Counted from the stretch's first letter, positions 28,238 through 44,721 are shown. The stretch is 64,000 nt of DNA from an uncultured Rhodospirillaceae bacterium (GCA_900550445.1 URSF01000008.1:787-64786); one strand, 5' to 3'. Notes: generated from the sequence alone by a model not told the origin. A program made the numbers and translations.

Positions 28238-28311
28238 TCGCCAGATTTCCGTTGTTAGTAACTAACCGATTTTTTGATGTTTTTATAATTGCATTTCTCT
28301 GTTAGTTACAA

Positions 28312-28905: not shown

Positions 28906-29010
28906 GGCGTTACCTCCCAAAAATCTTCATTAAAGTAAAAATCCTTTATGTTAATGAATATGTCGTTTTTTACCCCTGTTTTTGTTGTTTTTAAAAACCG
29001 CAGGATTCTG

Positions 29011-29055
29011 CGAAAAAATAAAAAAATCTGAATTAATGTGTATTAATTCAGATTT
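29011..29055 (-). terminator. intrinsic terminator of the 29043-29934 operon
   Basis: 14-bp perfect stem AAATCTGAATTAAT/ATTAATTCAGATTT (29024-29055) followed on the minus strand by a T-rich run. It includes the stop codon. Confidence 0.7.
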
Positions 29056-29576
29056 CGTAATCGCAAATAATAGATGCCGTCCGTTCGAAGCGTGTATCTT
29101 GTCCGATAACCGACAGAAACTTCCTTTAACGGCAAACTCGCCATGTGAGCACTGTCGATCAGCTTTATCCGTTCCGCCTCAATTCGGTCGAATGCCGAAT
29201 AATGGTCAAGCGCATTTGAAAAAAATCGGACAATGACCCCGTTGTTGCAACTGCGTTCGTGTTCCATATCAAAAAGTACGGTTTCAAAGTCGGGTGTTTT
29301 GTGTCGGTACGGTCGCATCACTTCGATTTGCTTGTCGTATACGTCATGAAGAACTTTATTTAACCGACGCGCAAGCTTCATTACCTCTTTGTGTTCGGCT
29401 CCGTTCAGCATCAGATCCTTCAAATCAGCCGAAGACAGGTTTTCAATAATATCGTCCGCAACAGCCTGCGTTTGCAAGCGGGTTAATTTAAATCCCGTTG
29501 ACCGAACCGCGTTAATCAAAGCATACAGGGAGCAAAGCCGGTCAAGCTCCCCTTGTTTATATGGCCTAATATTCAT
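29043..29576 (-). CDS. hypothetical protein, possible papain-fold Cys peptidase-like
   Basis: 177 aa. N-terminal GELDRLCSLYALINAV (candidate nucleophile Cys) and later LDHYSAF (candidate His). 11-nt overlap with the upstream DUF3768 gene. Confidence 0.55.
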   Translation of the reverse strand: MNIRPYKQGELDRLCSLYALINAVRSTGFKLTRLQTQAVADDIIENLSSADLKDLMLNGAEHKEVMKLARRLNKVLHDVYDKQIEVMRPYRHKTPDFETVLFDMEHERSCNNGVIVRFFSNALDHYSAFDRIEAERIKLIDSAHMASLPLKEVSVGYRTRYTLRTDGIYYLRLRNLN

Positions 29577-29919
29577 CAGCCCTCATCACCGTTAAAACAC
29601 GACGGGTAACAGTTTCATCACTGGGATCGGGAGACAAACATTCCAGATCAATATCGTAGTAATCAATCTTCCAAAAATAAGCCGTACCATTCAGGTCAAT
29701 TTTACCGAAGTCGTGTTCACCGTACGGGTCGTTGTTACCGTTAAACTCATTAAAGGTACGGACAAGGTTCATTAAAGTTATCAGCTCCGATTGAGGCAAA
29801 CTTGATACCCCTGAGGTCATGAATACTTGTCCGCCGATAAACGTTCGTCTGAACCGGTCGTTTAATACCTGTATTTTTAAGGTTTTTTCGTCAAAATGAC
29901 GTTTATTTTCATGGCTCAT
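29566..29919 (-). CDS. DUF3768-like protein
   Basis: ~117 aa from the ATG at 29919 (the ORF track starts at GTG 29934). The block NDPYGEHDFGKIDLNGTAYFWKIDYYD...DPSDETVTRRVLTVMRADEY matches my recollection of DUF3768. Confidence 0.65.
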   Translation of the reverse strand: MSHENKRHFDEKTLKIQVLNDRFRRTFIGGQVFMTSGVSSLPQSELITLMNLVRTFNEFNGNNDPYGEHDFGKIDLNGTAYFWKIDYYDIDLECLSPDPSDETVTRRVLTVMRADEY

Positions 29920-30007
29920 AACTTTAACCCCCACCCCTTAAAAAACGCACAAAAGTATCCTGCCGCCAAGAAGCGGTTAAACAGTTTCAAATTGTGCGAG
30001 ATTGCTC

Positions 30008-30048
30008 AAAAAAAAATACCTACCACCGTTTTTTCGATGGTAGGTATA
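30008..30048 (-). terminator. intrinsic terminator of the 30113-30964 operon
   Basis: ATACCTACCA/TGGTAGGTAT 10-bp stem (30016-30048) followed on the minus strand by T8. Confidence 0.65.
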
Positions 30049-30112
30049 GTATACAAAAAACAGGTCAAATTGTCAAATTATTGCCGTTTTTCAATATGTT
30101 AGTCGTTTCCGC

Positions 30113-30613
30113 CTAAGCTGTTTTCGCCAGATTAAATAATCGATATAAAGCCGTATCTTTTTTCAAACGAACCGTCTCCGGAAATTCGTCATAGTTCAAA
30201 CTGTCGGTCAACAACCCGATGGTACTGATCGATTGTTCCCAGTGCAGGGCAACAAACTCGTCTTGGGGGTGCAGATAGCCTCCGATTATAAATGAGTTAA
30301 ACTCCTCTGAATAGCTCATGCCAAAAATGTACAGGGTTTCCTTTCCTTTTCTTTGCACCCAGTATTCGGATCGTTCCCAGAGCTTATACAGATTGTTCAC
30401 AGAAAGAATAACCTGTTCATCGTTGTTCTCTATTCCGATACCGTCGATAAACGTGTTGGGCGGATAAACGGGAATACCTTTTAAATACTTCGGAAAGTCT
30501 TCAATCACTTTACGAAGCTTGTCTTTATCAACATTTTGAAAAGCGTAATCCCTGTCTTCCGGGCTTAGGATATAAGAGCGGAGCTGCTCTTTCATTGTCT
30601 TATTCTTTTTCAT
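30113..30613 (-). CDS. hypothetical protein
   Basis: 166-aa ORF, 3-nt gap from the upstream gene. No family recognised with confidence. Confidence 0.55.
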   Translation of the reverse strand: MKKNKTMKEQLRSYILSPEDRDYAFQNVDKDKLRKVIEDFPKYLKGIPVYPPNTFIDGIGIENNDEQVILSVNNLYKLWERSEYWVQRKGKETLYIFGMSYSEEFNSFIIGGYLHPQDEFVALHWEQSISTIGLLTDSLNYDEFPETVRLKKDTALYRLFNLAKTA

Positions 30614-30616
30614 GGG

Positions 30617-30964
30617 CTATTTCCTCCTGTTTCGACGGACGGTGTTTCGTTTTCTTTCCTGTCGCTCCTGATAGTAGCTTGAGCTTTCATAAGTGGCACG
30701 TCTGAGCCATCTAGACGCCCTCAGCATTTCTGAAATCGGTGCCGTCGCAACATTAAAAATGCCCTTTATTTCATAGAAAATATCGTAAAGACTTTCAGGC
30801 AGTTTGGGCAGGTAATATCCTTTCTGATATGCCCATTGGTATCGGATAAGATATTTTCTCAGTTCTTGCTGATTGTATGTGTGGTGCGGCCGTTTATTTT
30901 TACCGGTAATACCGCACTGACCGTAGCCGACATAGCTGTAGTTATTGAATTTTTTTCTATACAT
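30617..30964 (-). CDS. hypothetical protein with a basic C-terminal tail
   Basis: 115-aa ORF. The tail is QERQERKRNTVRRNRRK. No family recognised. Confidence 0.5.
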   Translation of the reverse strand: MYRKKFNNYSYVGYGQCGITGKNKRPHHTYNQQELRKYLIRYQWAYQKGYYLPKLPESLYDIFYEIKGIFNVATAPISEMLRASRWLRRATYESSSYYQERQERKRNTVRRNRRK

Positions 30965-31067
30965 GTTTTACCTCGCGAGTAAAAAATAACCACCCGACAA
31001 CCGTGTGGTTTTCATGTATAAAATTATTCAATTACCAAAATGAGGGGGCTTACTCTTTTAAAAACAA

Positions 31068-31733
31068 TCAATAACAGAGAAGTTTCTTTTCGAACTTTGC
31101 TTTAATTTCTTTCCAGTTCGGCATTTTCGAAGACAGGAGCCTGTAAAAATCTTCATCATGCCGCGGATAAAAGGTATGGCAAAGTTCGTGAATAATAACG
31201 TAATCAATCGCTTGCTTACTCGCTTTAATCAGATCGGGATTCAAAACGATTTCGTGTCGTTTCAAGTAACTGCCCCAACGCTTTTTCAGGCGTCTGATCT
31301 TTAATTCGGGCGGCGACAAATTCGGAAAAGACTTTAAACATTCCGTCAGCCGTTGTGTGAAAACGACTTTTGCCCGCGACAAAAGCCAACGTTGAAAATC
31401 GGCCGTGATTTCATCGGATTTTTGTGGCGCTGAGGATAAAATATACAACCTGTTTTTCGTTATTTTAACGCGGTTTTTATAAGCAGCTTTTTCGATAATG
31501 ACCTGATATTGACGCCCCAGATACAAGACGGAAGATCCTGAAAGAAATTCCGTCGGTTCTTTTCTGTTGAACTGTTGAAAATATTTTTTTTGCTTTTCGA
31601 TCCATGCTTCTTTGCGTTTAATGAACGCGTTAATCTGTGTATCGCTTGCCTCTGTCGGTGCTTTTATCACAACGGACAGATCGGGATGAACTTCTGCCGC
31701 AATCGATTTTCGAAGTTCCCTTATAATATTCAT
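31068..31733 (-). CDS. DUF45/YgjP-type zinc metallopeptidase (M48-like)
   Basis: 221 aa. HExxH in VIIHELCHTFYPRHDEDF. 1-nt overlap with hsdR. This family is commonly found next to hsdR. Confidence 0.85.
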   Translation of the reverse strand: MNIIRELRKSIAAEVHPDLSVVIKAPTEASDTQINAFIKRKEAWIEKQKKYFQQFNRKEPTEFLSGSSVLYLGRQYQVIIEKAAYKNRVKITKNRLYILSSAPQKSDEITADFQRWLLSRAKVVFTQRLTECLKSFPNLSPPELKIRRLKKRWGSYLKRHEIVLNPDLIKASKQAIDYVIIHELCHTFYPRHDEDFYRLLSSKMPNWKEIKAKFEKKLLCY

Positions 31734-34700
31734 CAGAGCATATCCTTGTTCTGCACCGCAAGATTCCAGGCTGTTTGCGCAATTTGTTCCACGGTATCGG
31801 CGTTTAATTTTTCTTCGACCTCGTCAAACAAATAGTCTTCAATATCATTGATTACATTGCGTCGGACGCTTAAATCGTTTTGAAAATCAACGATTTTACG
31901 ACTTTGGATAATATGGACGATTTTAGAAATGATCGCATTGTACGTTTCGTCCGGCACATTTAGAAATGGCTTGATGTTGCGATAAAAGGGGTGAAAGGTC
32001 TTTGTGGTTCTGAACATTTCGGGAATATCCGAATCCGTATAATCCTCTACGGCCTGCTGATACGCCTTGGCTTGATTAAGCAGAGCCTTCAAGTCTTCTT
32101 GTTTCGCTGTTTTCAAATCGGAAAGAAGTTTTTCGATCAGATCGCTGAATTTTTTATAAAAGATCTCGTCCTGTCCCCATTTTTCCCGAATGACCTTTTT
32201 TGTCTGAGCCAAGATCGCATCAGCTTTTGATCTGTCCGACAAACCGTTTTTCTGATCTTCGATATAACGGTTAAACTCCTGCATATCGGACAGGCTGATT
32301 TCTTTGGACAGGATTTCTGCCTCGCCCGCGTTGACATATTTATCCAGCAGTTTGATAATCTGATCTTTGTATTTTGAAAAGTCGACCGTTTGCGCGCATG
32401 CCAGTTGGGTTGTTTTTTTGATTTCGATATATTTTTTCAAAGTAAAACGGTATCGTTCCAACGTATCAGCGTCGACTTTATCGTAAAAATCGTACAAAGA
32501 CGTGCAGACGGAAAACTGATTGATACAAGCATTCACGTCTTCATAAAAAGCCTCGCGAATTCGTTCGTCGTTTTTCAACAACATAACGTAGGCGTCCGTA
32601 TTATTCTTATCTGTGACGGGGGAAAAAGCGGCATCCAAGCGATCAAAGATATTTTTTAATAATTCGATTTGACTGTCCGTGTCCAGCAGAGCGTTTTCAA
32701 TATCTTTTGGATCGAAATTTGAAAACAGTTCAAGGGCGTTTTTCAGATTTTTCGCGTTTTTGGAATAATCGATGATCAGTCCGGCTTTTTTGCATTGTTT
32801 GCCCGCATCACCGTTAAAGACGCGGTTGACACGTGCGATTGCTTGCAACAGATTATGATCCTTTAGCTGTTTTGCCAAATACAACACCGTGTCGCGCGGT
32901 GCATCGAAACCGGTCAAAAGTTTGTCTACGACGATCAAGAGTTCGCATCCTTCAGGATTCTTTTTATAGTCCCGAATGATTTGTTTTTCGCGCGTTTCCA
33001 AAGATCCGTATTTGTGTTTTTGTTCAGAAAGGTAGTCCGTAACGACTTTTTTATGATCGGCAAGAGCATCGTCAGCGCCATCTTCCGCAGGCGAGTCCGA
33101 AATTACGACTTCACAACGCAAATCCCCCAACATTTCAAACGCTTTTTTGAACATAACGGCGGCATATTTACTGGGCGCGACAAGCTGACCTTTCAGCCCC
33201 GTATCTCTGAAATTTTCCATAAAATGATCAAACACATCCAAAGCAATCATTTCTATGCGTTGCGCCGTTTCTTCCAATACGGATGCCGATACGCATTTTT
33301 TATTGAAATCTGCGCGTTGCTCCGGCGTCATTTTATCGAATATGCGTTCGTAAAATTTATCGGCGTTCGGGTTGACCGTCTGTTCAACAAAGCGCCCCTG
33401 ATAGATCAAAGGCAAAACGGCTCCGTCGGCTTCTGCTTCCGAAATCGTATATTCGTCAATCAATCCGCCAAATTTGTTGATGGATTGAGATTTAGTCAGG
33501 AAGCCGTCTTTTGTCTTTATCTTTTTCATCAACGGCGTGCCGGTAAACGCGATCTGACATGCACGAGGGAGGATTTGGTTCATCATGCCGTTGGCATCAC
33601 CGCCCTGAGTACGATGCGCTTCGTCAATCAAAACGAACAGGTTTTCATCGTTGTCGGTAAAATCCGTTTTCTGGTCGAACTTATGCACCAACGTTGTAAT
33701 GACGTCCGACGTTTTTGACCGTATTTTTTCGATCAGGTCGTTGCAGGACGTCGCCTGCTGAACGCCTTTTTTGATGTTGCACGCGGCGAAAGTATCACGA
33801 ATTTGCACGTCAAGATCACGGCGATCGGTTACGACGATAATGCGCGGATTTTTAACGGTTTCGATCAGGTTTTTAACCAACATCACCATCGTTAGCGATT
33901 TTCCCGATCCCTGCGTGTGCCAGATCAGTCCTCCGTGGCGTTTGCCGTTTTCGTCGCGTTCTTTAACGCGTTTTATTGTTTTTTTTATGGCGAAGAACTG
34001 CTGATATCGTGCGATTTTTTTGACGCCGTTATCGTAGACGATAAAGTTTTTCACAAGCTCAATCAATCGTTCGGGACGCAGAATGCTAAAGATGCCGCGA
34101 TCCTGTTGTGTCGGCGTTTCCTTTGGTTTTTGCAAATAAGCCCCGCGTAACAGGTCGGCGCCGATCTGTTTGACAATGTCAGGGTCTACGGGACGATTGA
34201 CGCTGTCAAGCACTGCGGCGGTAAATGAATCGTCCGCCCCCCGTTCTTTCCAATGCGAATAAAATTCGAACGGCGTCAACATCGTTCCATATCTGATTTG
34301 ACTGATGTTCGAACAGACTAACAGCTGAGGGAACAAAAAGAATTTAGGTGTTTGCCCCTGTTTTTGATTGCGAACCATCTGATAAACCGCTTCGTCCACG
34401 GAAACGGAGGCTTTTTTGTTTTCGATAACGGCAAAGGGAATACCGTTGACAAACAGGACGATATCGGGGCGACGATTACGATCTTCCGAAATTTCAAATT
34501 CCGCAACGACGTGATAAGTATTTTTCGTCGGATCGTCCCAGTTGATAAAGCGCATTTGGGGCGAAGTTTTTTTCCCGTTTAACAGTTCAGACACGGCTTT
34601 TCCGCTTAAAAGGTCGGAAAATATATTTTCCGATGCGGCGATCATACCGTCGTCAAGCCGAACTTTTTCCAAAGAAAAAATCGCTTCGCGAATGCTTTTG

Positions 34701-34894
34701 TCGGAAATGGTTTCATCGTTGATTGCGCGGACGGCGTTAAACGCGATATCGCGCAGGATATACTGATTTTTGCCGTCGCGTAATTCGTTGACCTTGTGGC
34801 GCGGGATATAGCGATAGCCCAGATTGATCAGCTGAAGCAAAGCGGGAATCTGCGACGAAGACGCTTCGTCAAAATCGGGAAGTGAGAAAGTCAT
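31733..34894 (-). CDS. hsdR: type I restriction endonuclease subunit R
   Basis: 1053 aa. N-terminal nuclease region, SF2 motor with HTQGSGKS (motif I) and LIDEAHRTQGG (DEAH), and a helical C-terminal domain. Confidence 0.95.
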   Translation of the reverse strand: MTFSLPDFDEASSSQIPALLQLINLGYRYIPRHKVNELRDGKNQYILRDIAFNAVRAINDETISDKSIREAIFSLEKVRLDDGMIAASENIFSDLLSGKAVSELLNGKKTSPQMRFINWDDPTKNTYHVVAEFEISEDRNRRPDIVLFVNGIPFAVIENKKASVSVDEAVYQMVRNQKQGQTPKFFLFPQLLVCSNISQIRYGTMLTPFEFYSHWKERGADDSFTAAVLDSVNRPVDPDIVKQIGADLLRGAYLQKPKETPTQQDRGIFSILRPERLIELVKNFIVYDNGVKKIARYQQFFAIKKTIKRVKERDENGKRHGGLIWHTQGSGKSLTMVMLVKNLIETVKNPRIIVVTDRRDLDVQIRDTFAACNIKKGVQQATSCNDLIEKIRSKTSDVITTLVHKFDQKTDFTDNDENLFVLIDEAHRTQGGDANGMMNQILPRACQIAFTGTPLMKKIKTKDGFLTKSQSINKFGGLIDEYTISEAEADGAVLPLIYQGRFVEQTVNPNADKFYERIFDKMTPEQRADFNKKCVSASVLEETAQRIEMIALDVFDHFMENFRDTGLKGQLVAPSKYAAVMFKKAFEMLGDLRCEVVISDSPAEDGADDALADHKKVVTDYLSEQKHKYGSLETREKQIIRDYKKNPEGCELLIVVDKLLTGFDAPRDTVLYLAKQLKDHNLLQAIARVNRVFNGDAGKQCKKAGLIIDYSKNAKNLKNALELFSNFDPKDIENALLDTDSQIELLKNIFDRLDAAFSPVTDKNNTDAYVMLLKNDERIREAFYEDVNACINQFSVCTSLYDFYDKVDADTLERYRFTLKKYIEIKKTTQLACAQTVDFSKYKDQIIKLLDKYVNAGEAEILSKEISLSDMQEFNRYIEDQKNGLSDRSKADAILAQTKKVIREKWGQDEIFYKKFSDLIEKLLSDLKTAKQEDLKALLNQAKAYQQAVEDYTDSDIPEMFRTTKTFHPFYRNIKPFLNVPDETYNAIISKIVHIIQSRKIVDFQNDLSVRRNVINDIEDYLFDEVEEKLNADTVEQIAQTAWNLAVQNKDML

Positions 34895-34921
34895 GACCGC
34901 TTTTCCTTTCGTTACATAAAA

Positions 34922-35881
34922 TTAAATTAAATCATAATTTCGCGTTATATAGGGCTTTGTTTCAGCTATATCATAAAGATTATCGATAATTTTCCCATTT
35001 TGAAAATGGAAGGGAACCGTAAAGGCGCCGGAATAAGAACGCTTTCCTTCAATGACGGGAATATAAAAATCATTTGTGTTTTCTATTCTATAATCAAGGG
35101 AACTTCTTGCTAATTGGGAACAGGTATCAATTTCGTTATATAAAGACATGGGGGAATAACGTACGGCAAACAGAATTAACTTAGCGGCGATTGCATTGAG
35201 GCAATTTTCAAGCGTTGCCAGATGAAAAACCTTATTTCCTTTGTGCTTTAAATTGTTATAAGCATCGTACCAAGGTATTGATTTAGTCGGTTCTTTTGCA
35301 TTCCAATTTTCAAAGGGGCAACATTTAAACGGGTTGGCATACCCGACTAATGATATTTTATATTTAGTTAAATCAACTAAATCCAATAATTTAACATAGT
35401 CAGATGTTCTTTCATTTTTTCCTAAATTATACAGTTTAAAGCTGTTTTCAATTTCCGTACAGGAAAGAATGAGTAATTCTTTTATCTTATGGCTATACGT
35501 TCTTAATCCTTCTGCGGAAGGTTCTACATAAAGCAATATCTCTTGTAATTTTTGGATAAGAATTCCTAAATCCCGCTTTGCTCTGCACAGCTCGACAGTA
35601 GTAAAAGCCAACTCATCTTGGATTTTGACATTTAAAAACGGTTTCCAGATATGTTTGTTTTTTATACCTATATCCATTCTTTCTTTTTTTATTATTTCAT
35701 ATTCAAAATAATTTTTTATAACATCTTCTATGTCATGCGAGTTATCAAAAATAGTCGTGTTTATTATCTGCGGAGCAAAATCATATTTATCAATTTGTAA
35801 AAAAACATTTTGCCGTTTTTCATTTTCATATGCGATTAAGCGATACTTTTCTTTTTTAGAAAAATAAACATCTGTTTTCAT
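34922..35881 (-). CDS. hypothetical protein inserted between hsdS and hsdR
   Basis: 319-aa ORF in strongly AT-rich DNA. 1-nt gap from hsdS and 27 nt from hsdR. No P-loop. Conserved-looking block IPWYDAYNNLKHKG...ATLENCLNAIAA. Confidence 0.65.
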   Translation of the reverse strand: MKTDVYFSKKEKYRLIAYENEKRQNVFLQIDKYDFAPQIINTTIFDNSHDIEDVIKNYFEYEIIKKERMDIGIKNKHIWKPFLNVKIQDELAFTTVELCRAKRDLGILIQKLQEILLYVEPSAEGLRTYSHKIKELLILSCTEIENSFKLYNLGKNERTSDYVKLLDLVDLTKYKISLVGYANPFKCCPFENWNAKEPTKSIPWYDAYNNLKHKGNKVFHLATLENCLNAIAAKLILFAVRYSPMSLYNEIDTCSQLARSSLDYRIENTNDFYIPVIEGKRSYSGAFTVPFHFQNGKIIDNLYDIAETKPYITRNYDLI

Positions 35882-35882
35882 T

Positions 35883-37097
35883 TTAATTCACTTTCACTCG
35901 GATTTTCCCGGTCAGAAGTTTTTGCATCAGGGCTTTTTTTTCCAGTTTAAAAGCCTCCAGTTTTTTGTTTAACAGTTCGATTTCTTCATCGGCTTTGGAA
36001 AGAATGTCCGCGATAGCCTTTTGCTCTTCCTGGCAAGGGCATTGAATAGGCAAAGATTTAATAATTTCTGCAGATAAATTTCCTTGCCCACCCTGTAAAT
36101 ATTTTCTTAAAATATTTTTCTTTTTATTTTGCAATAGGCAGCATAAAAAATATGAACCTATATATTGGCTGCGAATACATAAAATTGCCTGATTAATTGC
36201 ACCATCTATTTTTGAAATATTTACTTCTCCACTTGTTGCCCCATATAATGCATATAGCACATCTCCTTTGGATACTAATTTTGCAGATGAGCTTTCTAAC
36301 GCTTTGTTTGTAATAAAAAGTTCAGTCCTACCCAAATGTATTTCACCTGAACGAATAAAGGGGATGTTTCCTCCATAATATGTCTGATTTTTTACAGACG
36401 GAGTGCCCCCCGAAAAAGTTTTACAAACATCCCCCAACTTAACTTCGTACCAAGGGGTGGAGAAGCCTTTGAGGCGGTGTTTGCCGGTAAGGAGCTGTTG
36501 CATCAAGGCTTTTTTCTGAATTTTCTTTTTTTCAATCAACGCCGACAATTTTTCAATGCCTTCATCCCAACAGCTTAAAATCTCCGCAATCTTCTCTTGC
36601 TCTGCTAATGGGGGAAGAAGAATTGGAAGTAAGGAATATTCTTCAGAGTTTATACCTGGCTGACCACTTCTCATTGAATAAACCTTTACCCAATTCCAAT
36701 ATTTTTGCGTGTGGCTATACAGAAAAAGAAAGTATGGATTTATTTTGTTTTCATCTAAGATAAATCTTATTAAGTATCCTGCAAAAGCTATTTTTTCATT
36801 TGTAATACCATGCAAATATGTTTTCCCGACTGTAGCTCCAGTCCTTGCAAATAAAAGATTATTTTTAGAAAGTAATTTTTCTAATTTATAGTATTTAACA
36901 GACACTCGACCTTCGCTAATATATTTACCATCTTCTGAAATATCTGTTATTCTTAAATATAAGGGGAGATCTCTATTAAATGGGACGGCAGATTCATTTA
37001 GACCATAATCCGGACTATTTAAGCAAAGCTCTCCCAGCTTTTTAACACTCCACCCCTCAGGAATCTTCTGATCAATCTTTGTCATTAGCTTTAACAT
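35883..37097 (-). CDS. hsdS: type I R-M specificity subunit, two TRDs
   Basis: 404 aa. The two conserved helical spacers are IQKKALMQQLLTGKHRLKG and LEKKALMQKLLTGKIRVK, with two variable TRDs. Confidence 0.9.
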   Translation of the reverse strand: MLKLMTKIDQKIPEGWSVKKLGELCLNSPDYGLNESAVPFNRDLPLYLRITDISEDGKYISEGRVSVKYYKLEKLLSKNNLLFARTGATVGKTYLHGITNEKIAFAGYLIRFILDENKINPYFLFLYSHTQKYWNWVKVYSMRSGQPGINSEEYSLLPILLPPLAEQEKIAEILSCWDEGIEKLSALIEKKKIQKKALMQQLLTGKHRLKGFSTPWYEVKLGDVCKTFSGGTPSVKNQTYYGGNIPFIRSGEIHLGRTELFITNKALESSSAKLVSKGDVLYALYGATSGEVNISKIDGAINQAILCIRSQYIGSYFLCCLLQNKKKNILRKYLQGGQGNLSAEIIKSLPIQCPCQEEQKAIADILSKADEEIELLNKKLEAFKLEKKALMQKLLTGKIRVKVN

Positions 37098-38950
37098 CCT
37101 TTTGTTTTTTGTATAATGGCTTCTGTTAATTTTTTTAATAAAGGATGTTTTGTTTCAAAACTAGATGTGTTAAACTTTTCAGCCAGATCACTTTTTAGTT
37201 TATAAATAATCTCATCAGATTTATCGTTCAATCCATTTTTATGAAGAAAAATTTTTATTTTTTCCAAAATAGGGCGAGATGTATTTTCATCTTCAAAATT
37301 GAGTTCAGCATTTTCCTTTTTGATAAGAGGATTAAGACACGCTTTAATGAACTCTAGATTCAATGTATCTTCTATTGTCCCTCCAACAATAATATCTCCA
37401 CACAAGTCTCTAATAGTCATTACATTGGATGGTGAAAATGGAGCCCCTAACTCTATAATTTTTTCTTTATATTTTTTTCCATCATCGTCGTCATCTACAA
37501 TAACAATACAATCAACATCTGAATATTTTAATAACGAGGCAACCTGAACAATGTTTCCTCCTTGCCCATTTGTAATTCCAATGCAAGAGTTCACATCAAC
37601 TTTTTTTATACTTTTTCTTAATAGGTTAAAGTCAGATTTCCCTTCAACTAACACTTTATACGGTGTCAGTAAATCTTTAAGAACATTGATGCCAAAACCC
37701 ATTCTTAAAACTTCTTCATCTGCTAATATGATATCTTCTCTTATTTGCTTTATCTGAGTTTTCCCTTTTGATTTTTTGACAATAAAGTGGCGACTCATAT
37801 TTTTATTATCAATCATAAAAGGAGAATGAGTGGCGACAAAAACGTAATTATTTTTTCCAATCTTAATAAGTTCATCTCGCATATACCGGATTCCCGATGG
37901 ATGCAGGTGATTTTCTGGCTCATCAATTATAATAATTTGATCTTTACATTTTTCTTTTTTGTTTGAAATTGATAAATGGAGAATTAAAGATATAAAATGC
38001 TTAAACCCCTGGCTCCTTTCATCCATTCCAAAAAACTCATCTTCATTATCTTTATCCGTTATATATACATTTAATATTTTAGTTGAATTTTCTATCTCTA
38101 CATCAATTGAAACCCCATGCTCCTTCCATACTTCATTGATATATTTAGTTGCATTTTTGCTGAGTTGCCGAGATAGCGTACGTGTTTCTGCTGGTGTAAG
38201 AGATGATATTTTTTCTTGAATTTTCTCTTTAGTATCTAAATCACAAAGAGCAAATAAATTTGTCAAAGGAATCGAAATAGAATTATCTGCAGCAAATGCG
38301 TTTAAATCAATAGACTTTGTTATTAGATACTTTTCTTCAGCTTTCCATATTGATAATTCTTGATTAGGTGTTTTTAAGTTTGAAAAAACGTATTTTTGCA
38401 AAAGTTCAAATAAATTATCTTCATCTAATAAAGTGTATGACTTTTTTTCTTCTTCTGTTATTCCGTCATTATCTTTTATAGTGCATAATTTTTCATTTGG
38501 ATTTTGGCTTTGCTGTATCATAGCAAAAGAAAATTGGCTTATATCAAATGGCTCCCACAATATATTATAGACAGAAGAAAATGATGTCTTATCTTTCTCT
38601 AAGAAGACATTTTTTTCATATTCAGTTATTTTAAATACTTTTTCAAATTTAGGAGAACAATTTACATATTTTTTTAATTCTTTTTTCCATTCGTCTTCTT
38701 TATTAAATTTATATCTATAATACAAATCTACATATTTTTCTTTTGAATCTCTATATGCTATATCTTTAAATTTATATGTTTTTTTATTAATTGTCTCTGA
38801 CAGTAATGAAATTGCATCTAATAAATTACTTTTTCCGGCTTCATTTAATCCGACAAATACAGAAGTCCAACTATCTCCGTATTTCTCAATGGGGATAACG
38901 ACATCATAAATTGATTTATAATTACGTATTTCTATTTCACTTAAATACAT
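37091..38950 (-). CDS. OLD-family ATP-dependent endonuclease (ABC-type ATPase + TOPRIM)
   Basis: 619 aa. Walker A GLNEAGKSNLLDAI, Walker B IIIIDEPENHLHP, VATHSP. TOPRIM Glu in VLVEGKSD and the acidic DxD cluster VIVDDDDDG. 7-nt overlap with hsdS and 13 nt after hsdM. Confidence 0.85.
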   Translation of the reverse strand: MYLSEIEIRNYKSIYDVVIPIEKYGDSWTSVFVGLNEAGKSNLLDAISLLSETINKKTYKFKDIAYRDSKEKYVDLYYRYKFNKEDEWKKELKKYVNCSPKFEKVFKITEYEKNVFLEKDKTSFSSVYNILWEPFDISQFSFAMIQQSQNPNEKLCTIKDNDGITEEEKKSYTLLDEDNLFELLQKYVFSNLKTPNQELSIWKAEEKYLITKSIDLNAFAADNSISIPLTNLFALCDLDTKEKIQEKISSLTPAETRTLSRQLSKNATKYINEVWKEHGVSIDVEIENSTKILNVYITDKDNEDEFFGMDERSQGFKHFISLILHLSISNKKEKCKDQIIIIDEPENHLHPSGIRYMRDELIKIGKNNYVFVATHSPFMIDNKNMSRHFIVKKSKGKTQIKQIREDIILADEEVLRMGFGINVLKDLLTPYKVLVEGKSDFNLLRKSIKKVDVNSCIGITNGQGGNIVQVASLLKYSDVDCIVIVDDDDDGKKYKEKIIELGAPFSPSNVMTIRDLCGDIIVGGTIEDTLNLEFIKACLNPLIKKENAELNFEDENTSRPILEKIKIFLHKNGLNDKSDEIIYKLKSDLAEKFNTSSFETKHPLLKKLTEAIIQKTKGC

Positions 38951-38963
38951 TTTAACTCCTTTC

Positions 38964-40463
38964 TTAGATTTCTAATTCTTTAAGATATGCAGACATTTTG
39001 TCCTGAACAGCACTAAGTTGTGCTTCCAAATCGGCGATTTCGGCTTTGACGGCGGACAAGTCAATTTCCTCTTCCTCCTCAAACGTATCGACATAACGCG
39101 GAATATTCAGGTTAAAGTCGTTTTCTTCAATCTCGTCAAAGCTTGCCAAATGCGAAAATTTTTCAATTTCCGAACGGTTTTTATAAGTCTCAAATATCTT
39201 GGTGATGTGCTCCGGTTCAAGCGTGTTTTGATTTTTTCCCGCCTTAAATTCTTTGCTGGCATCAATAAACAAGACGTCTTTTCGTTCTTGATTTTTACCG
39301 CCTTCCTGTCGGGACTTGTCAAAAATCAAAATGGCGACGGGAATTCCCGTCGTTTGGAACAATCCTGCCGGCAAACCGATAACCGCATCCAGCAGATTTT
39401 CCTTTATCAGCGCTTGGCGGATGCGCCCCTCCGAACTGCCGCGAAACAAAACACCGTGCGGAACAATTACCGCAACGCGCCCCGATTTTTCTTTGGCGGT
39501 GGCGATCATATGCGAAATAAACGCATAATCCCCCTTGCTGGCCGGAGGCATTCCGCGATCAAAACGATGATAGATGTCATTTTCCAAATGCTTTTCGCCC
39601 CATTTATCTAAAGAAAAAGGAGGGTTTGCGACAATCACATCGAACTGCATCAGTTTTTCATCCTCTTTCAGCAAAGGATTGTTCAGCGTGTCTCCCCATT
39701 CCAAACGGGCGGAATCTTTGTGGTGCAAAAACATATTCATACGCGCCAGATTGTACGTCGCTCCGGTTTTTTCCTGACCGTACAAGGCATAGTCTTTGGA
39801 TTCTTGTTTTTCGACTTCTTCGCCCGCCAACAAAAGCAGACCGCCCGAACCGCAGGTCGGGTCGCAAATGCGATCCCCGGGCTTTGGCATCGCCAGTTTT
39901 GCCAGCAATGACGCAACGACTTTCGGGGTGTAGAACTCACCCGCCTTTTTCCCCGCATCCGACCCAAAGCGTTCGATCAGATACATATACGCGTTACCCA
40001 GCAGGTCGCCGTCAACTTCCGACAGGTCAACTTTGCTAAAATCACTGATCATATCCCGCAACATTTTGTTACGTTGTGATGTCTGACCCAAAACGGACTG
40101 GCTATTAAAATCAACCGTAAAAATATCGTGCAAAGGTCCGTTTGCCTCTTCAATTTTATGTAACGCGATGTTCAGAAGTTCGCCTATATTGTCCGCGTTC
40201 TGGTTTTCATAAATGTCGGAAAAGGTCGCCCCCTCAGGCAAAACAAAGCGCGCGTTTTTCAGTTTCAACGCAATGCGATCTTTGTCGTCACCGTAACGGT
40301 CTTTCAGTTTTTTGACTTCGGCTTGCTTGATGTCGCTGATATATTTAAAGAATAAAAACGCTAAAATATAATCCTTAAAAATACTGCTATCCACAACGCC
40401 CCGCGCAGAATCCGCAGCGTTCCACAGCAGTTTATTCAATTCGTCTTGAGTTAAAACAGCCAT
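38964..40463 (-). CDS. hsdM: type I R-M DNA methyltransferase subunit M
   Basis: 499 aa. HsdM N-terminal domain, AdoMet motif ICDPTCGSGGLL, catalytic VIVANPPFS. Confidence 0.95.
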   Translation of the reverse strand: MAVLTQDELNKLLWNAADSARGVVDSSIFKDYILAFLFFKYISDIKQAEVKKLKDRYGDDKDRIALKLKNARFVLPEGATFSDIYENQNADNIGELLNIALHKIEEANGPLHDIFTVDFNSQSVLGQTSQRNKMLRDMISDFSKVDLSEVDGDLLGNAYMYLIERFGSDAGKKAGEFYTPKVVASLLAKLAMPKPGDRICDPTCGSGGLLLLAGEEVEKQESKDYALYGQEKTGATYNLARMNMFLHHKDSARLEWGDTLNNPLLKEDEKLMQFDVIVANPPFSLDKWGEKHLENDIYHRFDRGMPPASKGDYAFISHMIATAKEKSGRVAVIVPHGVLFRGSSEGRIRQALIKENLLDAVIGLPAGLFQTTGIPVAILIFDKSRQEGGKNQERKDVLFIDASKEFKAGKNQNTLEPEHITKIFETYKNRSEIEKFSHLASFDEIEENDFNLNIPRYVDTFEEEEEIDLSAVKAEIADLEAQLSAVQDKMSAYLKELEI

Positions 40464-40464
40464 T

Positions 40465-41019
40465 TTATATCTCCGTATTTAAAGACAATTCCAATAATTT
40501 TGCTTTTTTCTCTGCCAAACGTCGCGACAATTCCTTTTCCTTTAAAAGCAAAAAGTATGTTTCCGCAAGAAGTTTCTGCCGTTTCAAGGGCAACGGCGGA
40601 ATATCCAAACTTTCAATGCCCGATCGAACAATAGCCTGCAAAGTGCCGGGATTCCTGCGAGAGGACATTTGTGCTTGTCCCGATTTTGAATTAAGATAAA
40701 AAACCAGAAACTTGGGCAAAAAATGTTTGTCCCGAACGGAAAGCACAAACAACAAATTGGAAGCAATGGCGTCATGAGCACCTTGATACAGTGCGGCTTT
40801 AAATTCGCCTCTGCTTGACAGAAGAACGTCCTCTGCCTTTAACAGATAATCCTTCTTGAAATGTTTGGGAGTGAAACAAACCGGGACATCCGCGATAATC
40901 CCGCCGCCGATCACGTCCTTCGGCTGAACAACTTGATATAATCCGTCCGACATATTCGGCACTGCTCCTCGAAAAGGATAGCCTGCTCTGATTTCGGCAA
41001 TGTCACAAAGTCGTGTCAA
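40465..41019 (-). CDS. half-size HsdS-like protein (single TRD + one conserved helix)
   Basis: 184 aa. N-terminus LCDIAEIRAGYPFRG is typical of S-subunit TRDs. C-terminal coiled helix LLKEKELSRRLAEKKAKLLELSL. 1-nt gap from hsdM. Confidence 0.75.
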   Translation of the reverse strand: MTRLCDIAEIRAGYPFRGAVPNMSDGLYQVVQPKDVIGGGIIADVPVCFTPKHFKKDYLLKAEDVLLSSRGEFKAALYQGAHDAIASNLLFVLSVRDKHFLPKFLVFYLNSKSGQAQMSSRRNPGTLQAIVRSGIESLDIPPLPLKRQKLLAETYFLLLKEKELSRRLAEKKAKLLELSLNTEI

Positions 41020-41253
41020 TGTAATTCCTCCAGGTTTTTAAACAGAATAGATAAAACAGATGGAAATTACAATAGAAAAAAAACGCACTTTTTTATTGAC
41101 AGCGACGCCGCAAAAAGATATCTCTAAAAAAAGAGGGCGGAAGTCCGCCCTCTTTGACAGCCGGAACAACGCCCGACAATCTTTCGCAAATTTTGTTTTA
41201 TCGCGTTATTTCCGCCGCTGTCAAGGTTTAAACTTTATTAAGCGGAGGTCTGT

Positions 41254-41544
41254 ATGACAGCGAACATGACAATAGCATCAGATATTTTGAAACACGTAGG
41301 TTGGGATTCCAAGTCCGATTGGTATGTCGGAATTGCGTCGGATGCATCAACCCGTTTATTTCATGACCACAACGTTGACGAAAAAAACGGTCGTTGGATT
41401 TATCGTGACGCCCAAAGCGAAACGGACGCACGAGACACGGAACGATACTTGTTGCAGAATTATCCTTTTCAAGGCGGTACGGGCGGCGGAAATTATCCAC
41501 GCTATGTTTATGCGTATAAAATCACCCCTACGACCAAAGAATAG
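41254..41544 (+). CDS. small hypothetical protein (possibly GIY-YIG-like)
   Basis: 96 aa. WYVGIASDASTRLFHDH ... ARDTERYLL ... YVYAYK loosely recalls the GIY-YIG motif order. Confidence 0.4.
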   Translation: MTANMTIASDILKHVGWDSKSDWYVGIASDASTRLFHDHNVDEKNGRWIYRDAQSETDARDTERYLLQNYPFQGGTGGGNYPRYVYAYKITPTTKE

Positions 41545-41714
41545 TATCAGCTCTGCATTTATCGGGTGTCCGTAAATATGGGATTCCGGTAAGACGACAT
41601 AAACGCTTTGGCCTATTTAAGTCCCAAAAGGTTTTTATAACGGAAGTTTTCAATATGTCCGCATATGCAGATAATTAAGAAAGATTTATGCGACGTGAAA
41701 GGCAGGTGATATAT

Positions 41715-41891
41715 ATGGCAACAAATCCGCCGAAGGGCGACGGACACCGTAACGGTGCAATCAAAGATCGGTCTCAGGTTTATAATCCGAAAACAGATCG
41801 TTGGGTTAAACGCGATGCCGATACGGGGCGGTTTATTGACCAAAAGGCCGATGACAAACCGTTTATAAGCGTTCGCAAAGAAAAGCAATAA
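41715..41891 (+). CDS. small conserved hypothetical protein
   Basis: 58 aa from the ATG at 41715 (SD AGGTGA). Sequence MATNPPKGDGHRNGAIKDRSQVYNPKTDRWVKRDADTGRFID..., followed by a terminator. Confidence 0.5.
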   Translation: MATNPPKGDGHRNGAIKDRSQVYNPKTDRWVKRDADTGRFIDQKADDKPFISVRKEKQ

Positions 41892-41905
41892 TTCTTAAAA
41901 AAAAG

Positions 41906-41938
41906 CCGCTCTGATAAAAATCAGGGCGGTAGCTTTTT
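41906..41938 (+). terminator. intrinsic terminator
   Basis: CCGCTCTGAT-AAAA-ATCAGGGCGG (1 mismatch) followed by TAGCTTTTT. Confidence 0.55.
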
Positions 41939-42199
41939 AGTGCTGTTTTGGGAATTTGTTTTTGAGGCTTTTAAACAGTTTTAAAAAAAAGATGTTTAAG
42001 CAAACTGATAAAAACACTCCTGTTTAATATCGACTTTAAACCTGTTTTTATATCGGCATACGATCGGGAATGATTTCGAGATTGCTAAGCTACGAAGGCA
42101 AGTTCAAGAAGGATTATCAAGACCATACCGGTTTGATTAACTTCTGGGTCGTTTTACCTGAAATACGCAGGCGGGGCATTAAGGTTCCGCCTGTTTTGT

Positions 42200-42541
42200 T
42201 TATTCCTCTGCCGATTTAAACCAGTTTTTTCGTCTGTGTTCAAGGGCGTTCAGTACTTTTAAAACGTTGCCGACCTGAACGGTCGTATCCCCGTGCAACA
42301 GCTTTAAAACCGTCGGCTTGGACAGTTTCGCCTCTTTGGCCAGGACGTCCGCAGAAACGCCCAATATCGTTTTGTAACGGTTTATTTGTTCGACAATAAT
42401 GCGCCACTTTAAAATGTCGGTCACTTTATCGTTCGTGAAATCGATTTTCGGAACGCCGTACGTTTTTCGTTTTTGTTTGCTGTTGCGTTTCTTTTTTACA
42501 AAATCAAAATCGGTATCAACATCATCAAAATCAGCTGTCAT
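42200..42541 (-). CDS. HTH DNA-binding protein (XRE-like) at the island right end
   Basis: 113 aa. LGVSADVLAKEAKLSKPTVLKLLHG is a helix-turn-helix. Acidic N-terminus, then a basic linker. Confidence 0.65.
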   Translation of the reverse strand: MTADFDDVDTDFDFVKKKRNSKQKRKTYGVPKIDFTNDKVTDILKWRIIVEQINRYKTILGVSADVLAKEAKLSKPTVLKLLHGDTTVQVGNVLKVLNALEHRRKNWFKSAEE

Positions 42542-42775
42542 GGCGTCTCCCGTTTTCTTTACAGGCTATTCCGGCTTTTTATGTTAGTCAATTATAATTA
42601 TCTTTAAGGATTTTTATATTTATCCCTTTTCTCTGTTTACAAGATTAAGGGTATGATTTAACGTGATAAATATGCTAACAAAACTGCTAACATTTTTTTA
42701 TGAAAAGGAGCTCAAGACTTGATAAAAACCGCAAAAATCCGTCATTTAACGTCATCAAAAAATCAAAATCATACC

Positions 42776-42996
42776 TCCAGGTTCCCCAGCCACTTTGAAA
42801 GCCAAGTCGTTGAAAAAACGAACTTGGCTTTTTTATGATCGGGGAAATGTTAGTGGTACTAATAAAGCTGCTAACGATGTTCGTTCGCACAGGCGATTGT
42901 CATGACATTGTACAATCGCGGTTATTCTTAATTATGCCATTCTGTACGTTTCTTGAAATACCTGTCTTTCTCCTGATGAAAAACAGATCTGGATTT
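42776..42996 (+). repeat. attR plus right copy of the ~220-bp direct repeat
   Basis: Exact 18-nt core TCCAGGTTCCCCAGCCAC, a copy of the tRNA terminator, and a diverged copy of the int 5' end. Confidence 0.85.
42902..42996 (+). pseudogene. integrase 5' stub (remnant of an older element)
   Basis: ATGACATTGTACAATCGCGGTTATTCTTAA gives MTLYNRGYS*, against MTLYNRGYSYYAIL in the intact int. Homology stops at about 42996. Confidence 0.75.
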
Positions 42997-43434
42997 AAGC
43001 CATCTGTATGTGTAGGTACGAACGGCATTTAGCTTTAAAAGACTTTCTGAAAAGGAGGCTTCTTTAAAAAGGAAACACATTTAGGCAGATTTTTCACATA
43101 TTTTTCGAGCCCTTACAATTTTCCTATAAAGTTTGCGCTTTCTACAGAAATCTACAGGACATTTGAAAGGGCCGTTGGCGCATTGGGAACTTTAAATGCC
43201 CTTGAATTAAAATACATCACGAGATGTATAACAGAGGGGCTTTTGGGGAGTTGTTTTTTGGGAATAAAAAAGAGAAAATCAATCACCGCTAAATTAACTC
43301 TGAAATACACGTTTGAATCATAAGAAACATGAAAGCCGCTTATTATGAAAACGTTTAGAAGAAGAAAAAAATTCCTTGACATTTTAGCAAAAATAATAAC
43401 AATATGTGATATGCTGAAAATACACTTATTGTCT

Positions 43435-43461
43435 AAGCAGGATATGATGCCTGCTTTTTTT
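43435..43461 (+). terminator. hairpin plus T-run in the leader of the tail-fibre gene
   Basis: AAGCAGG-ATATGATG-CCTGCTT followed by T6, ending 14 nt before ATG 43475. A TTGACA box lies at 43376-43381. Confidence 0.45.
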
Positions 43462-43474
43462 ATGGGAAAAAATA

Positions 43475-44377
43475 ATGACGGTAAGCACAACAATAAATAA
43501 AATGTCTTATATCGGAAACGGAATTGCCACAAGCTTTGCCATTCCTTTTCCTTATTTAGACATTTCTCATTTAAAGGTGTATCAGCTTTTAAATGACATT
43601 CAGACAGAAAGAACGGATTGGACGGTTCAAAACGGCAATCTGATTTTTGAAACGGCTCCGGTGATGGACGCTCAGATTGTGATTATTCGGGAATTGCCTT
43701 TTATTCAAGAAACCGATTATCAGGAAAACGAAATACTGGCAGCAGAAACTTTGGAGAAAAACTTTGATGCTTTAACAATGCAAATACAGCAGTTGAAGGA
43801 ACAAGCCGACAGAGCCGTGACGGTGGATCTGTTTGACGAAACGGCCGCTTCGGATTTACTGCCTAGCATCAGATCTGCTGTTTCCAATGCCGCCGAGTAT
43901 GCTCAATCGTCGGCAGAACAAGCAAATAATGCCGCACAATCCGCCCAAACAGCAACGGAAAAAGCTTTAATCGCGACAAACAAGGCTCAAGAAGCGATAA
44001 ATACATTGGCAAACAAAGCTGATAAAAGTGTATATGCTTCAAAAACCGTTCGCGGTGTGGCAATGTGGGCAAACACGTATTCTAATGTGACAGAAAATCG
44101 TCCTGCTACAGTTATCATCAGTTATGTCAACGGTTCTTCTTGGTATCGTTTGTGGTCCGACGGTTGGATCGAACAAGGCTTTTCAATTTCCGGCGATTCA
44201 AATATGTTAAATTGGCCGAAGCCTTTTTCTAATACAAATTATACGGTAACGAGTACCCCTGTTGTATATAATAATTATGGAGTGCAGGCTGTTTCCATTA
44301 CATCAAAAACCGCGGCAGGGATTGTCTGGGCTGGAACGAATTATTCCTCGACCTGTTGGTATGCCTGCGGTTATTAA
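43475..44377 (+). CDS. phage tail fibre protein with T7 gp17-like N-terminal adaptor domain
   Basis: 300 aa. The N-terminus (YIGNGIATSFAIPFPYLDISHLKVY ... IVIIRELPFIQETDYQEN ... LTMQIQQLKEQADR) parallels the T7 gp17 N-terminal region. It has an Ala/Gln-rich coiled coil and a C-terminal tip with WYRLWSDGWIEQG. Confidence 0.75.
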   Translation: MTVSTTINKMSYIGNGIATSFAIPFPYLDISHLKVYQLLNDIQTERTDWTVQNGNLIFETAPVMDAQIVIIRELPFIQETDYQENEILAAETLEKNFDALTMQIQQLKEQADRAVTVDLFDETAASDLLPSIRSAVSNAAEYAQSSAEQANNAAQSAQTATEKALIATNKAQEAINTLANKADKSVYASKTVRGVAMWANTYSNVTENRPATVIISYVNGSSWYRLWSDGWIEQGFSISGDSNMLNWPKPFSNTNYTVTSTPVVYNNYGVQAVSITSKTAAGIVWAGTNYSSTCWYACGY

Positions 44378-44391
44378 TGGGAGATTGATCA

Positions 44392-44721
44392 ATGAAAACA
44401 CTACGACAGATTTCTGACGAACAACCTGTTCTGTATGCACAAATGGCTTTAGAGGCAAACAATGCAGGGAAATTGTTGATTGTTGATAATAACGATCAGT
44501 TGCAGTTGGCAGACTATCCGGAAAAAACAGATGAGGAAAAAGCCGCTGATATCAGAAAACACAGAAATGCTTTATTGGAGGCGACTGATAAATATATGTT
44601 GGAAGATTTTCCGATTTCAACAGAAAAGAAACAAGCCTATAAAGACTATCGCCAACAACTGCGTGATATAACGGCGACAGAAAATTTTCCGTACGATATA
44701 AAATTTCCGGTAATGCCGTAA
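44392..44721 (+). CDS. tail fibre assembly chaperone
   Basis: 109 aa. RKHRNALLEATDKYMLEDFPIS...AYKDYRQQLRDITATENFPYDIKFPVMP is the typical Tfa C-terminal signature. Confidence 0.75.
   Translation: MKTLRQISDEQPVLYAQMALEANNAGKLLIVDNNDQLQLADYPEKTDEEKAADIRKHRNALLEATDKYMLEDFPISTEKKQAYKDYRQQLRDITATENFPYDIKFPVMP

Follow-up and report, generated by a model that had tools for sequence, protein, structure and literature searches.

Does a nuclease gene that lies in a type I restriction-modification (R-M) operon, flanked by the methylase gene and the specificity gene, guard the enzyme that surrounds it, or does it act by itself and travel in the operon as cargo? The question is raised by a 64,000-nucleotide (nt) stretch of DNA from an uncultured Rhodospirillaceae bacterium (GCA_900550445.1 URSF01000008.1:787-64786; hereafter the window), in which an OLD-family gene is enclosed by a complete type I system. 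The LepA that the window encodes is identical to MBP3402689.1, and the host is an alphaproteobacterium. A preliminary description of this DNA had proposed that the gene codes for a single-polypeptide guard of the Hsd complex, the whole forming a physically coupled module rather than two neighbouring systems. We favour another reading, to which we assign a probability of about 0.6: the OLD gene encodes an autonomous defence nuclease and is exchangeable, low-GC cargo in a type I operon, at a hotspot with two slots. The genes of this operon are, in order, half-size hsdS, hsdM, OLD (slot 1), hsdS, U319 (slot 2), hsdR and an M48 peptidase gene, and the genes flanking OLD all share its strand (minus, as for every feature below unless stated otherwise).

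The OLD-family nuclease

The open reading frame (ORF) at 37091..38950 starts with ATG, has a GC content of 0.28 and was confirmed as genuine; it joins an ABC ATPase to a TOPRIM domain in a single polypeptide of 619 amino acids (aa). The Walker A and B motifs and the strings VLVEGKSD and DDDDDG, on which the preliminary description was built, can all be read directly from the sequence and its translation. The ABC-ATPase region with its inserted domain covers residues 1-400 (37751..38950) and contains Walker A (GLNEAGKS, residues 34-41, 38828..38851, from G34 to K40) and Walker B (IIIIDEPE, residues 339-346, 37913..37936, with D343-E344), as well as a signature-like R312-S313-x-G315, the D-loop H350 and the H-loop H375. 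The TOPRIM domain and a C-terminal helical region, delimited from the secondary structure of an AF2 model, make up residues 428-619 (37094..37669), with the PF20469 match over residues 433-488. By alignment, the motif VLVEGKSD (residues 433-440, 37631..37654) would supply E436 as a ligand of metal A and D440 as a ligand of metal B, while the DDDDD run (37481..37495; DDDDDG is residues 486-491) would supply the DxD ligands of metal A, D486 and D488. T525-I-E527-D528 (37367..37378) is the probable S/T-x-E motif of metal B and, judging from the motif pattern, would be equivalent to S478-x-E480 of the Thermus scotoductus class 1 enzyme TsOLD.

None of these motifs is degenerate on alignment: in 30 homologs of 35-70% identity, all ATPase motif positions and E436, D440, D486 and D488 are invariant, as are R312-S313-x-G315, H375, N461-G462, E527-D528 and K586, with T525 nearly so. 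A comparison with a 97%-identical copy gives a dN/dS of 0.19 for the gene, which indicates purifying selection.

Assignment of the protein to the OLD family, also proposed earlier, is borne out by Pfam, by PADLOC and by sequence and fold matches to TsOLD. Pfam returns AAA_15 (1e-26), AAA_21 (6e-17) and OLD-like_TOPRIM (PF20469, 1e-4), whose score equals the gathering cut-off. In PADLOC, the top profile is Old (1.8e-35), followed by AriA (5e-29, for the ATPase part only), GajA (1e-19), AriAB (1.6e-18) and AbiLi (1e-16); NCBIfam gives sub-threshold matches only, and 251 homologs are found at E<1e-5. Used alone, the TOPRIM domain retrieves from PADLOC weak matches to PDC-M38B (1e-4) and GajA (2e-4) and none to AriB, and the whole protein does not match DUF4435 (PF14491) at E<=0.01.

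The closest solved relative by sequence is TsOLD (6p74, E 2e-6), for which the catalytic and metal-ligand roles of the residues are established (PMC7049728). HMMER pairs K40, D343, H350 and H375 with TsOLD K34, E276, H283 and H310 on the ATPase side, and E436, D440, D486 and D488 with TsOLD E377, D381, D431 and D433 on the metal side. TsOLD is also the best match by fold: an AF2 model built on the homolog alignment (pLDDT 87.5) retrieves from the PDB with Foldseek first 6p74 (1.7e-17), then GajA and the retron Eco8 effector, with no PARIS structure among the 50 best matches. The two proteins are nonetheless distant, with 13% identity in the fold alignment, and global TM scores are low (0.33-0.39), as expected for multidomain proteins whose domains differ in pose. 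We conclude that the gene codes for a full-length, intact OLD-family ABC-ATPase/TOPRIM nuclease of class-1-like architecture, whose activity is predicted from its residues.

Like the class 1 enzymes (P2 Old, TsOLD and the OLD of Vibrio cholerae, Vc OLD), the protein has no helicase or reverse-transcriptase partner, and no UvrD or reverse-transcriptase domain was found in the flanking ORFs tested. It departs from class 1 in its conserved RSxG signature-like motif, the ABC signature of that class having been reported as degenerate (PMC7049728), and in its position, since class 1 genes are described in a review as not lying near other defence genes (PMC10568477) whereas this one sits in a type I R-M operon. 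The four-class scheme of OLD enzymes contains no R-M-embedded class (PMC10568477). The gene differs from class 2 (GajA of Gabija) in that its downstream gene is hsdS, and from class 3 (retron effectors) in that the neighbouring ORFs tested have no reverse-transcriptase domain; an Rfam search of the whole window found only two tRNAs and no retron non-coding RNA. PARIS (AriA/AriB, class 4, occasionally fused as AriAB) likewise combines an OLD-type ABC ATPase with a TOPRIM domain and is linked to anti-restriction. We tried and rejected membership in this class, because the TOPRIM domain is of another type (DUF4435 in AriB, PF20469 here), AriAB scores 17 orders of magnitude behind Old, and no PARIS fold appears in the top 50.

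Presence and absence in type I operons

We surveyed relatives in a one-genome-per-species scan, which gave 80 loci whose ORFs were searched with the window's Hsd proteins; 55 relatives are full-length and 22 are shorter relatives or fragments (<560 aa). No hsd gene could be detected within 10 kb in 42 of the 55. Eleven of the 55 lie in line with hsd genes, and for two further ones the hsd genes are up to about 7 kb away and on the opposite strand; among the 22 shorter sequences, 8-9 are in line. The full-length gene occupies the hsdM-hsdS junction in two loci (L018, L052) and the hsdS-hsdR junction in seven (L007, L013, L015, L019, L043, L050, L054), lies directly 3' of hsdR in L029 and about 2 kb past an hsdR-peptidase pair in L012. 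About a quarter of the sampled homologs are found in or beside type I operons, in two slots and with at least three hsd backbones. A strong enrichment inside hsd operons, on which the preliminary description had made its proposal depend, is thus present.

The relatives outside hsd operons keep no constant company. The 126 neighbour ORFs of 35 non-embedded full-length members were compared with Pfam, and no family occurs in more than five of them; housekeeping genes, RhuM, Fic, resolvases and recombinases occur there, together with various type II/IIG R-M genes, and no partner recurs. Because 42 of 55 relatives have no nearby hsd gene and because no partner recurs, we read the nuclease as autonomous: on the evidence gathered, its function would not require the Hsd proteins.

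We also inspected individually the contigs of eleven among the closest homologs. In seven of these (P0001, P0003, P0005, P0006, P0010, P0012 and P0014, at 97, 70, 69, 64, 50, 45 and 44% identity) the order is hsdM, zero to two genes, OLD, hsdS, with the OLD stop at -11 to +5 nt from the hsdS start. In two of the seven, namely P0012 and P0014 (L088/L089 and L092), the backbone is an unrelated one, with an HsdM 26% identical to that of the window and an EcoEI-type HsdR. The four other homologs (45, 43, 42 and 41% identity) lie outside hsd operons: one adjoins protein kinase genes, one stands in a Fic-OLD-resolvase arrangement, one follows an integrase gene, and one is on a conjugative element. 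Among such individual members, that of L090 is the one beside a kinase gene, and those of L093-L095 are on integrative or conjugative elements. A neighbour-joining tree places the embedded members in several distinct clades, with non-embedded members in between.

A reverse survey, in which the window's HsdM was used to fetch operons from a metagenome collection different from that of the first scan, found an OLD homolog in none of 13 contigs with an HsdM 81-98% identical. In these OLD-less operons the hsdM-hsdS slot is taken by RhuM/Fic-type genes, PDC-S72, PDC-S13 (Bro-N) or a string of small unassigned ORFs, and the hsdS-hsdR slot by U319, PDC-S34 (HAD) or an unannotated 482-aa gene; DUF6680 is also among the slot occupants. 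In more distant backbones (HsdM 53-56%), hsdM directly overlaps hsdS.

The most informative of these sister operons is on metagenome contig L099, which matches the window at 98.3-98.8% nt identity over 44000..38994 (the flank with half-hsdS and hsdM), 37107..35875 (hsdS, at 98.3%) and 34888..31234 (hsdR and the peptidase gene). Between the first two blocks, a first strain-variable cassette (37108..38993) takes in almost all of the OLD gene along with the spacer and the final ~9 codons of hsdM, and is replaced in L099 by 3.0 kb of unrelated low-GC DNA between flanks that are 98.3% identical. Between the second and third, a variable segment holding U319 (34889..35874) is likewise replaced by unrelated DNA (PDC-S34/HAD). 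Therefore one and the same R-M enzyme, its HsdS included, occurs both in company of OLD and without it. Such near-identical operons of the same HsdS specificity make a natural pair, suited to distinguishing an independent defence layer from anti-restriction sensing and from dependence on Hsd.

The cargo is GC-poor in all loci (0.23-0.33, against 0.34-0.52 for hsdM), with a trough of 0.27-0.31 in the window. The breakpoints fall at the 3' end of hsdM and just 5' of the hsdS ATG, and no signals of site-specific recombination or flanking repeats were found at the cassette borders, the repeats there being short, AT-rich and chance-like. Since repeats do not mark the borders, the cassettes are probably exchanged through homologous recombination that uses the conserved flanks in the hsd genes. 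Both the hsdM-hsdS and the hsdS-hsdR junctions are hotspots for swapped defence or candidate defence genes.

A second contig, L083, shows the mosaic nature of the locus (compared over 31012..42016): synonymous divergence is ~0.23-0.27 in half-hsdS, hsdM and the peptidase gene, and ~0.07-0.11 in OLD, U319 and hsdR. About 1 kb of hsdS (37029..36027), corresponding to one target-recognition domain, is replaced between the two, leaving HsdS 44% identical between neighbours that are 97-98% identical; hsdS varies independently of OLD and of the backbone in the window's lineage. We considered whether OLD and hsdS move as one cassette and rejected this, as L083 pairs a 97% OLD with an HsdS of 44% aa identity, and L099 has a 98% hsdS without OLD.

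The guard proposed in the preliminary description, and with it the physical coupling of the module, is left without support by the 42 of 55 relatives lacking hsd genes, the 13 close backbones lacking OLD and the OLD-less twin L099. The presence and absence of the gene also partly contradict that interpretation.

The tightness of the gene junctions, on which that proposal had leaned, fares better. After the hsdM stop codon TAA comes the spacer GAAAGGAGTTAAA, then the OLD ATG, so the stated distance of 13 nt is correct; within this spacer, 5 nt before the ATG, is a strong AGGAG Shine-Dalgarno sequence (38956..38960). The 7-nt overlap announced between OLD and hsdS is valid only if hsdS starts at its first in-frame ATG (37097). 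A start at the second ATG (37085, MTKIDQ...) is more likely, because homology with the 98%-identical OLD-less sister begins there, the gene caller picked that start in L083, and the hsdS ORF of L099 has 400 aa against 404 aa in the window; from there, hsdS would have 400 aa and the junction would read TAA-AGCTA-ATG, with a 5-nt gap in place of the overlap. With either start, no terminator or promoter can fit between OLD and hsdS. A scan of the minus strand from 34,900 to 38,960 found no terminator-like site, and consensus matches to promoters and terminators are no more numerous there than in shuffled controls. As the gene spacing excludes transcription signals and the scans show none above background, OLD is very probably co-transcribed with hsdM and hsdS.

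Autonomous nuclease, sensor or guard

In the reading that we favour, OLD would be transcribed with hsdM and hsdS and translated from its own strong ribosome-binding site, one transcript thereby giving first-line restriction and, as a second line, an OLD nuclease that probably aborts the infection or blocks replication. Characterised relatives suggest by analogy that the ATPase with its insert domain might act as a sensor or switch that holds the TOPRIM domain inactive until an infection cue, after which a two-metal TOPRIM reaction might nick DNA or cleave tRNA. A defence function is suggested by P2 Old, Vc OLD, GajA and HEC-04. Among these and related enzymes, P2 OLD and AriB are reported to cleave tRNA, Vc OLD and GajA to cut DNA. 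P2 OLD acts alone, as a tRNase that senses single-stranded DNA hairpins and is activated by a tetramer-to-dimer transition (bioRxiv 10.64898/2026.07.10.737580), and Vc OLD also acts alone, as a nickase that blocks phage replication (PMC11741312). HEC-04 is an ABC ATPase-TOPRIM fusion with experimentally confirmed defence activity that needs Walker A and the TOPRIM acidic residues (bioRxiv 10.1101/2024.01.29.577857); it has the same two-domain architecture as the window's OLD, but its host system is Hma and not type I R-M. When the full OLD protein is compared with PADLOC, HEC-04 is not among the 25 best matches, and the TOPRIM domain alone does not match it either.

Cargo of this kind has been collected under the term 'guilt-by-embedding' (Payne et al. 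2024, bioRxiv 10.1101/2024.01.29.577857), which reports 17,432 embedded genes after removal of redundancy; such genes are common within BREX, DISARM and type I R-M systems and found also in Hma. Like that cargo, the window's OLD lies in the same orientation between core defence genes and has non-embedded homologs; sister operons hold other cargo in the same slots, e.g. PDC-S13, S34 and S72. DarTG2 and TgvAB are experimentally studied cargo of type I operons, and the DarTG2 operon shares the trailing M48 peptidase gene. RloAB (of Campylobacter hsd loci) and AbiL likewise bring an ATPase and a TOPRIM-like module into type I loci; RloAB has been recorded in Campylobacter hsd loci since Miller 2005, according to what two papers citing that work relate (PMC13064643, PMC2928727). 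RloAB consists of two genes (an AbiLi-type ATPase and RloB, PF13707), whereas the window's OLD is one fused ORF with no match to PF13707. In the collection of papers searched, none combines OLD, TOPRIM, hsdR and hsdM, and in the literature examined neither the ~605-640-aa single-chain OLD family nor its recurrent hsdM-OLD-hsdS arrangement is described. The family shows a clear, repeated link with type I R-M, while reviews state that single-gene OLD nucleases have no tie to other defence genes.

Some points weigh against treating the gene as plain cargo. HsdM, OLD and HsdR identities run in parallel in the OLD-bearing lineage (97/97/98, 82/70/72, 76/64/64 and 68/50/63%), which amounts to co-divergence. 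The tight OLD-hsdS junction is kept also in two unrelated backbones (L088, L092), and co-divergence and junction together exceed what pure hitch-hiking stability would give, leaving room for a functional tie with R-M. A genome is expected to hold about one type I system, from which we estimate the enrichment of OLD near type I systems as at least tens-fold. Finally, the absence of OLD from close backbones comes from a collection other than that of the relatives' scan, and from 13 informative contigs only.

The association would find an explanation if OLD, as in PARIS, stood alone but were triggered by a phage anti-restriction protein (an Ocr/ArdA-type DNA mimic or an Stp-like peptide), the activated TOPRIM domain then cutting tRNA or DNA and aborting the infection. 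Such a trigger would account for the strong and repeated placement near type I genes, across at least three backbones and two slots, and would fit the stand-alone members, since PARIS works without an R-M partner. Within PARIS, Ocr is indeed sensed by an ABC ATPase of OLD type, Ocr activates Gabija as well (PMC11464382), and BREX-embedded OLD-ABC/TOPRIM modules have been proposed by the same logic as back-up suicidal effectors against anti-restriction (PMC12839542). However, the TOPRIM type (PF20469 and not DUF4435), the profile scores (AriAB 1.6e-18 against Old 1.8e-35) and the top 50 folds all separate the protein from PARIS; the slots also hold RhuM, Fic, Bro-N, HAD and unannotated genes, so that location alone does not point to an anti-restriction trigger; and the single-gene OLDs characterised so far respond to DNA structures or to replication (bioRxiv 10.64898/2026.07.10.737580, PMC11741312), not anti-restriction proteins. 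Anti-restriction sensing is compatible with all observations but draws specific support from none of them, and we consider it unlikely.

A narrower proposal concerns the hsdM-OLD-hsdS lineage only (44-97% identity, two unrelated backbones, junctions of -11 to +5 nt), in which OLD may have become a true guardian of the R-M enzyme; this we regard as distinctly doubtful. If it were so, the lineage would add to the OLD nucleases a fifth context class, embedded in R-M, with production coupled to HsdS and an ATPase that senses either an anti-restriction protein or that the methylase/specificity complex has been lost or inhibited, and the principle of PrrC and PARIS would extend to single-chain OLD enzymes. 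The idea of an R-M guardian is not new as a concept, 'RM guardian' being an established term for PrrC and PARIS (PMC12707154).

PrrC provides the model for the physically coupled guard that the preliminary description had in view, with OLD latent in a HsdM/HsdS(/HsdR) complex and firing upon its inhibition or disassembly. PrrC itself, the standard example of an R-M system joined to an abortive back-up, is an ABC-ATPase-nuclease that lies within EcoprrI and that Stp activates (PMC12707154), and, together with RloC, it resembles the window's OLD as an ABC-type ATPase-nuclease fusion inside a type I R-M operon. Besides this precedent, the embedding itself, the OLD-hsdS junction conserved from 97% down to 44% identity and the co-divergence with hsdM and hsdR would all be accounted for. 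The likeness has limits: the PrrC effector is a HEPN-type anticodon nuclease and that of OLD a TOPRIM domain, the PrrC slot is hsdS-hsdR and that of OLD hsdM-hsdS, and PrrC is almost exclusively embedded (bioRxiv 10.1101/2024.01.29.577857), whereas the OLD family is found mainly outside hsd operons. Moreover, the same R-M system (HsdM, HsdS and HsdR 98% identical) is present without OLD, none of the 13 close-backbone operons carries it, and other clades use the hsdS-hsdR or post-hsdR position in unrelated hsd families, which is hard to reconcile with a specific interface. The alignment of 30 homologs shows no domain that embedded members possess and non-embedded ones lack. Latency in the Hsd complex is thus very unlikely.

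Least probable of all is a selfish passenger or addiction element that persists via the junction hotspot or by stabilising the locus with no role in phage defence, since its attractions (strain-level presence and absence, low GC, interchangeable cargo, and non-hsd relatives often beside resolvases or integrases or on conjugative elements) are set against purifying selection, catalytic residues all kept across 35-97% identity, and characterised relatives of the same architecture that are defence proteins.

The rest of the operon and its other cargo

The operon begins with the half-size hsdS-like gene (40465..41019, 184 aa, TTG start), which has one target-recognition domain (Pfam Methylase_S 1.2e-6, PADLOC Specificity_I 8e-13); 5' of it are a GGAGG ribosome-binding site and the terminator of the preceding gene. 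It precedes and abuts hsdM and is kept in sister operons L081, L083, L086, L091, L066 and L099-L117, and therefore the operon codes for one full and one half specificity subunit. hsdM (38964..40463, 499 aa, GC 0.46) codes for the type I methyltransferase subunit (N6_Mtase 5e-104, HsdM_N 6e-23), and hsdS (35883..37097, 404 aa from the first ATG) has two target-recognition domains, with Methylase_S (2e-42) matching in two stretches. The restriction/translocase subunit is encoded by hsdR (31733..34894, 1053 aa), with HSDR_N, SWI2_SNF2, ResIII and T1R_D3-like domains. The last gene, overlapping the hsdR stop, codes for a YgjP-like (M48/SprT-like) metallopeptidase (31068..31733, PF01863 3e-52); it is retained after hsdR in sister operons, and a peptidase after hsdR has also been described elsewhere (PMC12255303).

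Being a clean two-slot cargo hotspot of a type I operon, the locus also points to at least two uncharacterised candidates for defence genes, namely U319 and the TOPRIM-less ATPase variants of related operons. U319, the second embedded cargo gene (34922..35881, 319 aa), has no assigned family, with no match in Pfam, PADLOC or NCBIfam; it has 148 homologs and matches phrog_19461 (2e-47, function unassigned). Its AF2 model (pLDDT 91, pTM 0.88) has no significant match in the PDB, and the sole significant one in BFVD is a fragment of an uncharacterised phage protein (E 2e-4); a resemblance to HEPN toxins is faint only. A 47%-identical relative lies beside an HTH_3 gene and an integrase gene on an integrative element, and U319 stands alone on an integrative element in L096-98. 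U319 is a candidate defence gene. We rejected it as an obligate partner of OLD, which occurs without U319 in L086, L088, L091 and L092, while U319 occurs without OLD in L104, L105 and L110.

Several of the shorter relatives of OLD (466-507 aa) also fill an hsdM-hsdS slot (L066:9986-11425, L034:9983-11446, L055:5327-6778, L037, L058, L027 and L044), the operon of L066 having a related layout with an HsdM 64% identical to that of the window. They keep the OLD-type ABC ATPase, and the TOPRIM domain is replaced by a C-terminal domain of ~120 aa with invariant DYHNELY and YIRNxIHH motifs and no match in Pfam or the PDB. This looks like a swap of the effector domain on the same sensor ATPase. They could not be taken for PrrC homologs, as no PrrC is found among their 25 best PADLOC matches.

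At least five loci, some within hsd operons and some not, have a Fic/RhuM/SoFic-like gene directly 5' of their OLD homolog (L081:6945-7994, which is PDC-S72, L084:1273-2358, L091:3963-5006, L001:584-1684 and L093:5703-6806). In sister operons without OLD, the hsdM-hsdS slot is also most often filled by RhuM/Fic genes. The window lacks the Fic/RhuM-like gene. The adjacency of Fic/RhuM and OLD may reflect either a recurrent gene pair or simply cargo sharing the same hotspot.

On both sides of the operon (28300..31000 and 41200..44400) are small ORFs of 90-300 aa without any Pfam match, which may be more accessory genes or part of a defence island. An AAA_14/DUF4143 ATPase gene at a distance of about 3 kb from the end of the operon (26904..28166, plus strand) belongs to the same family as the gene that follows hsdR in L088, L089 and L092.

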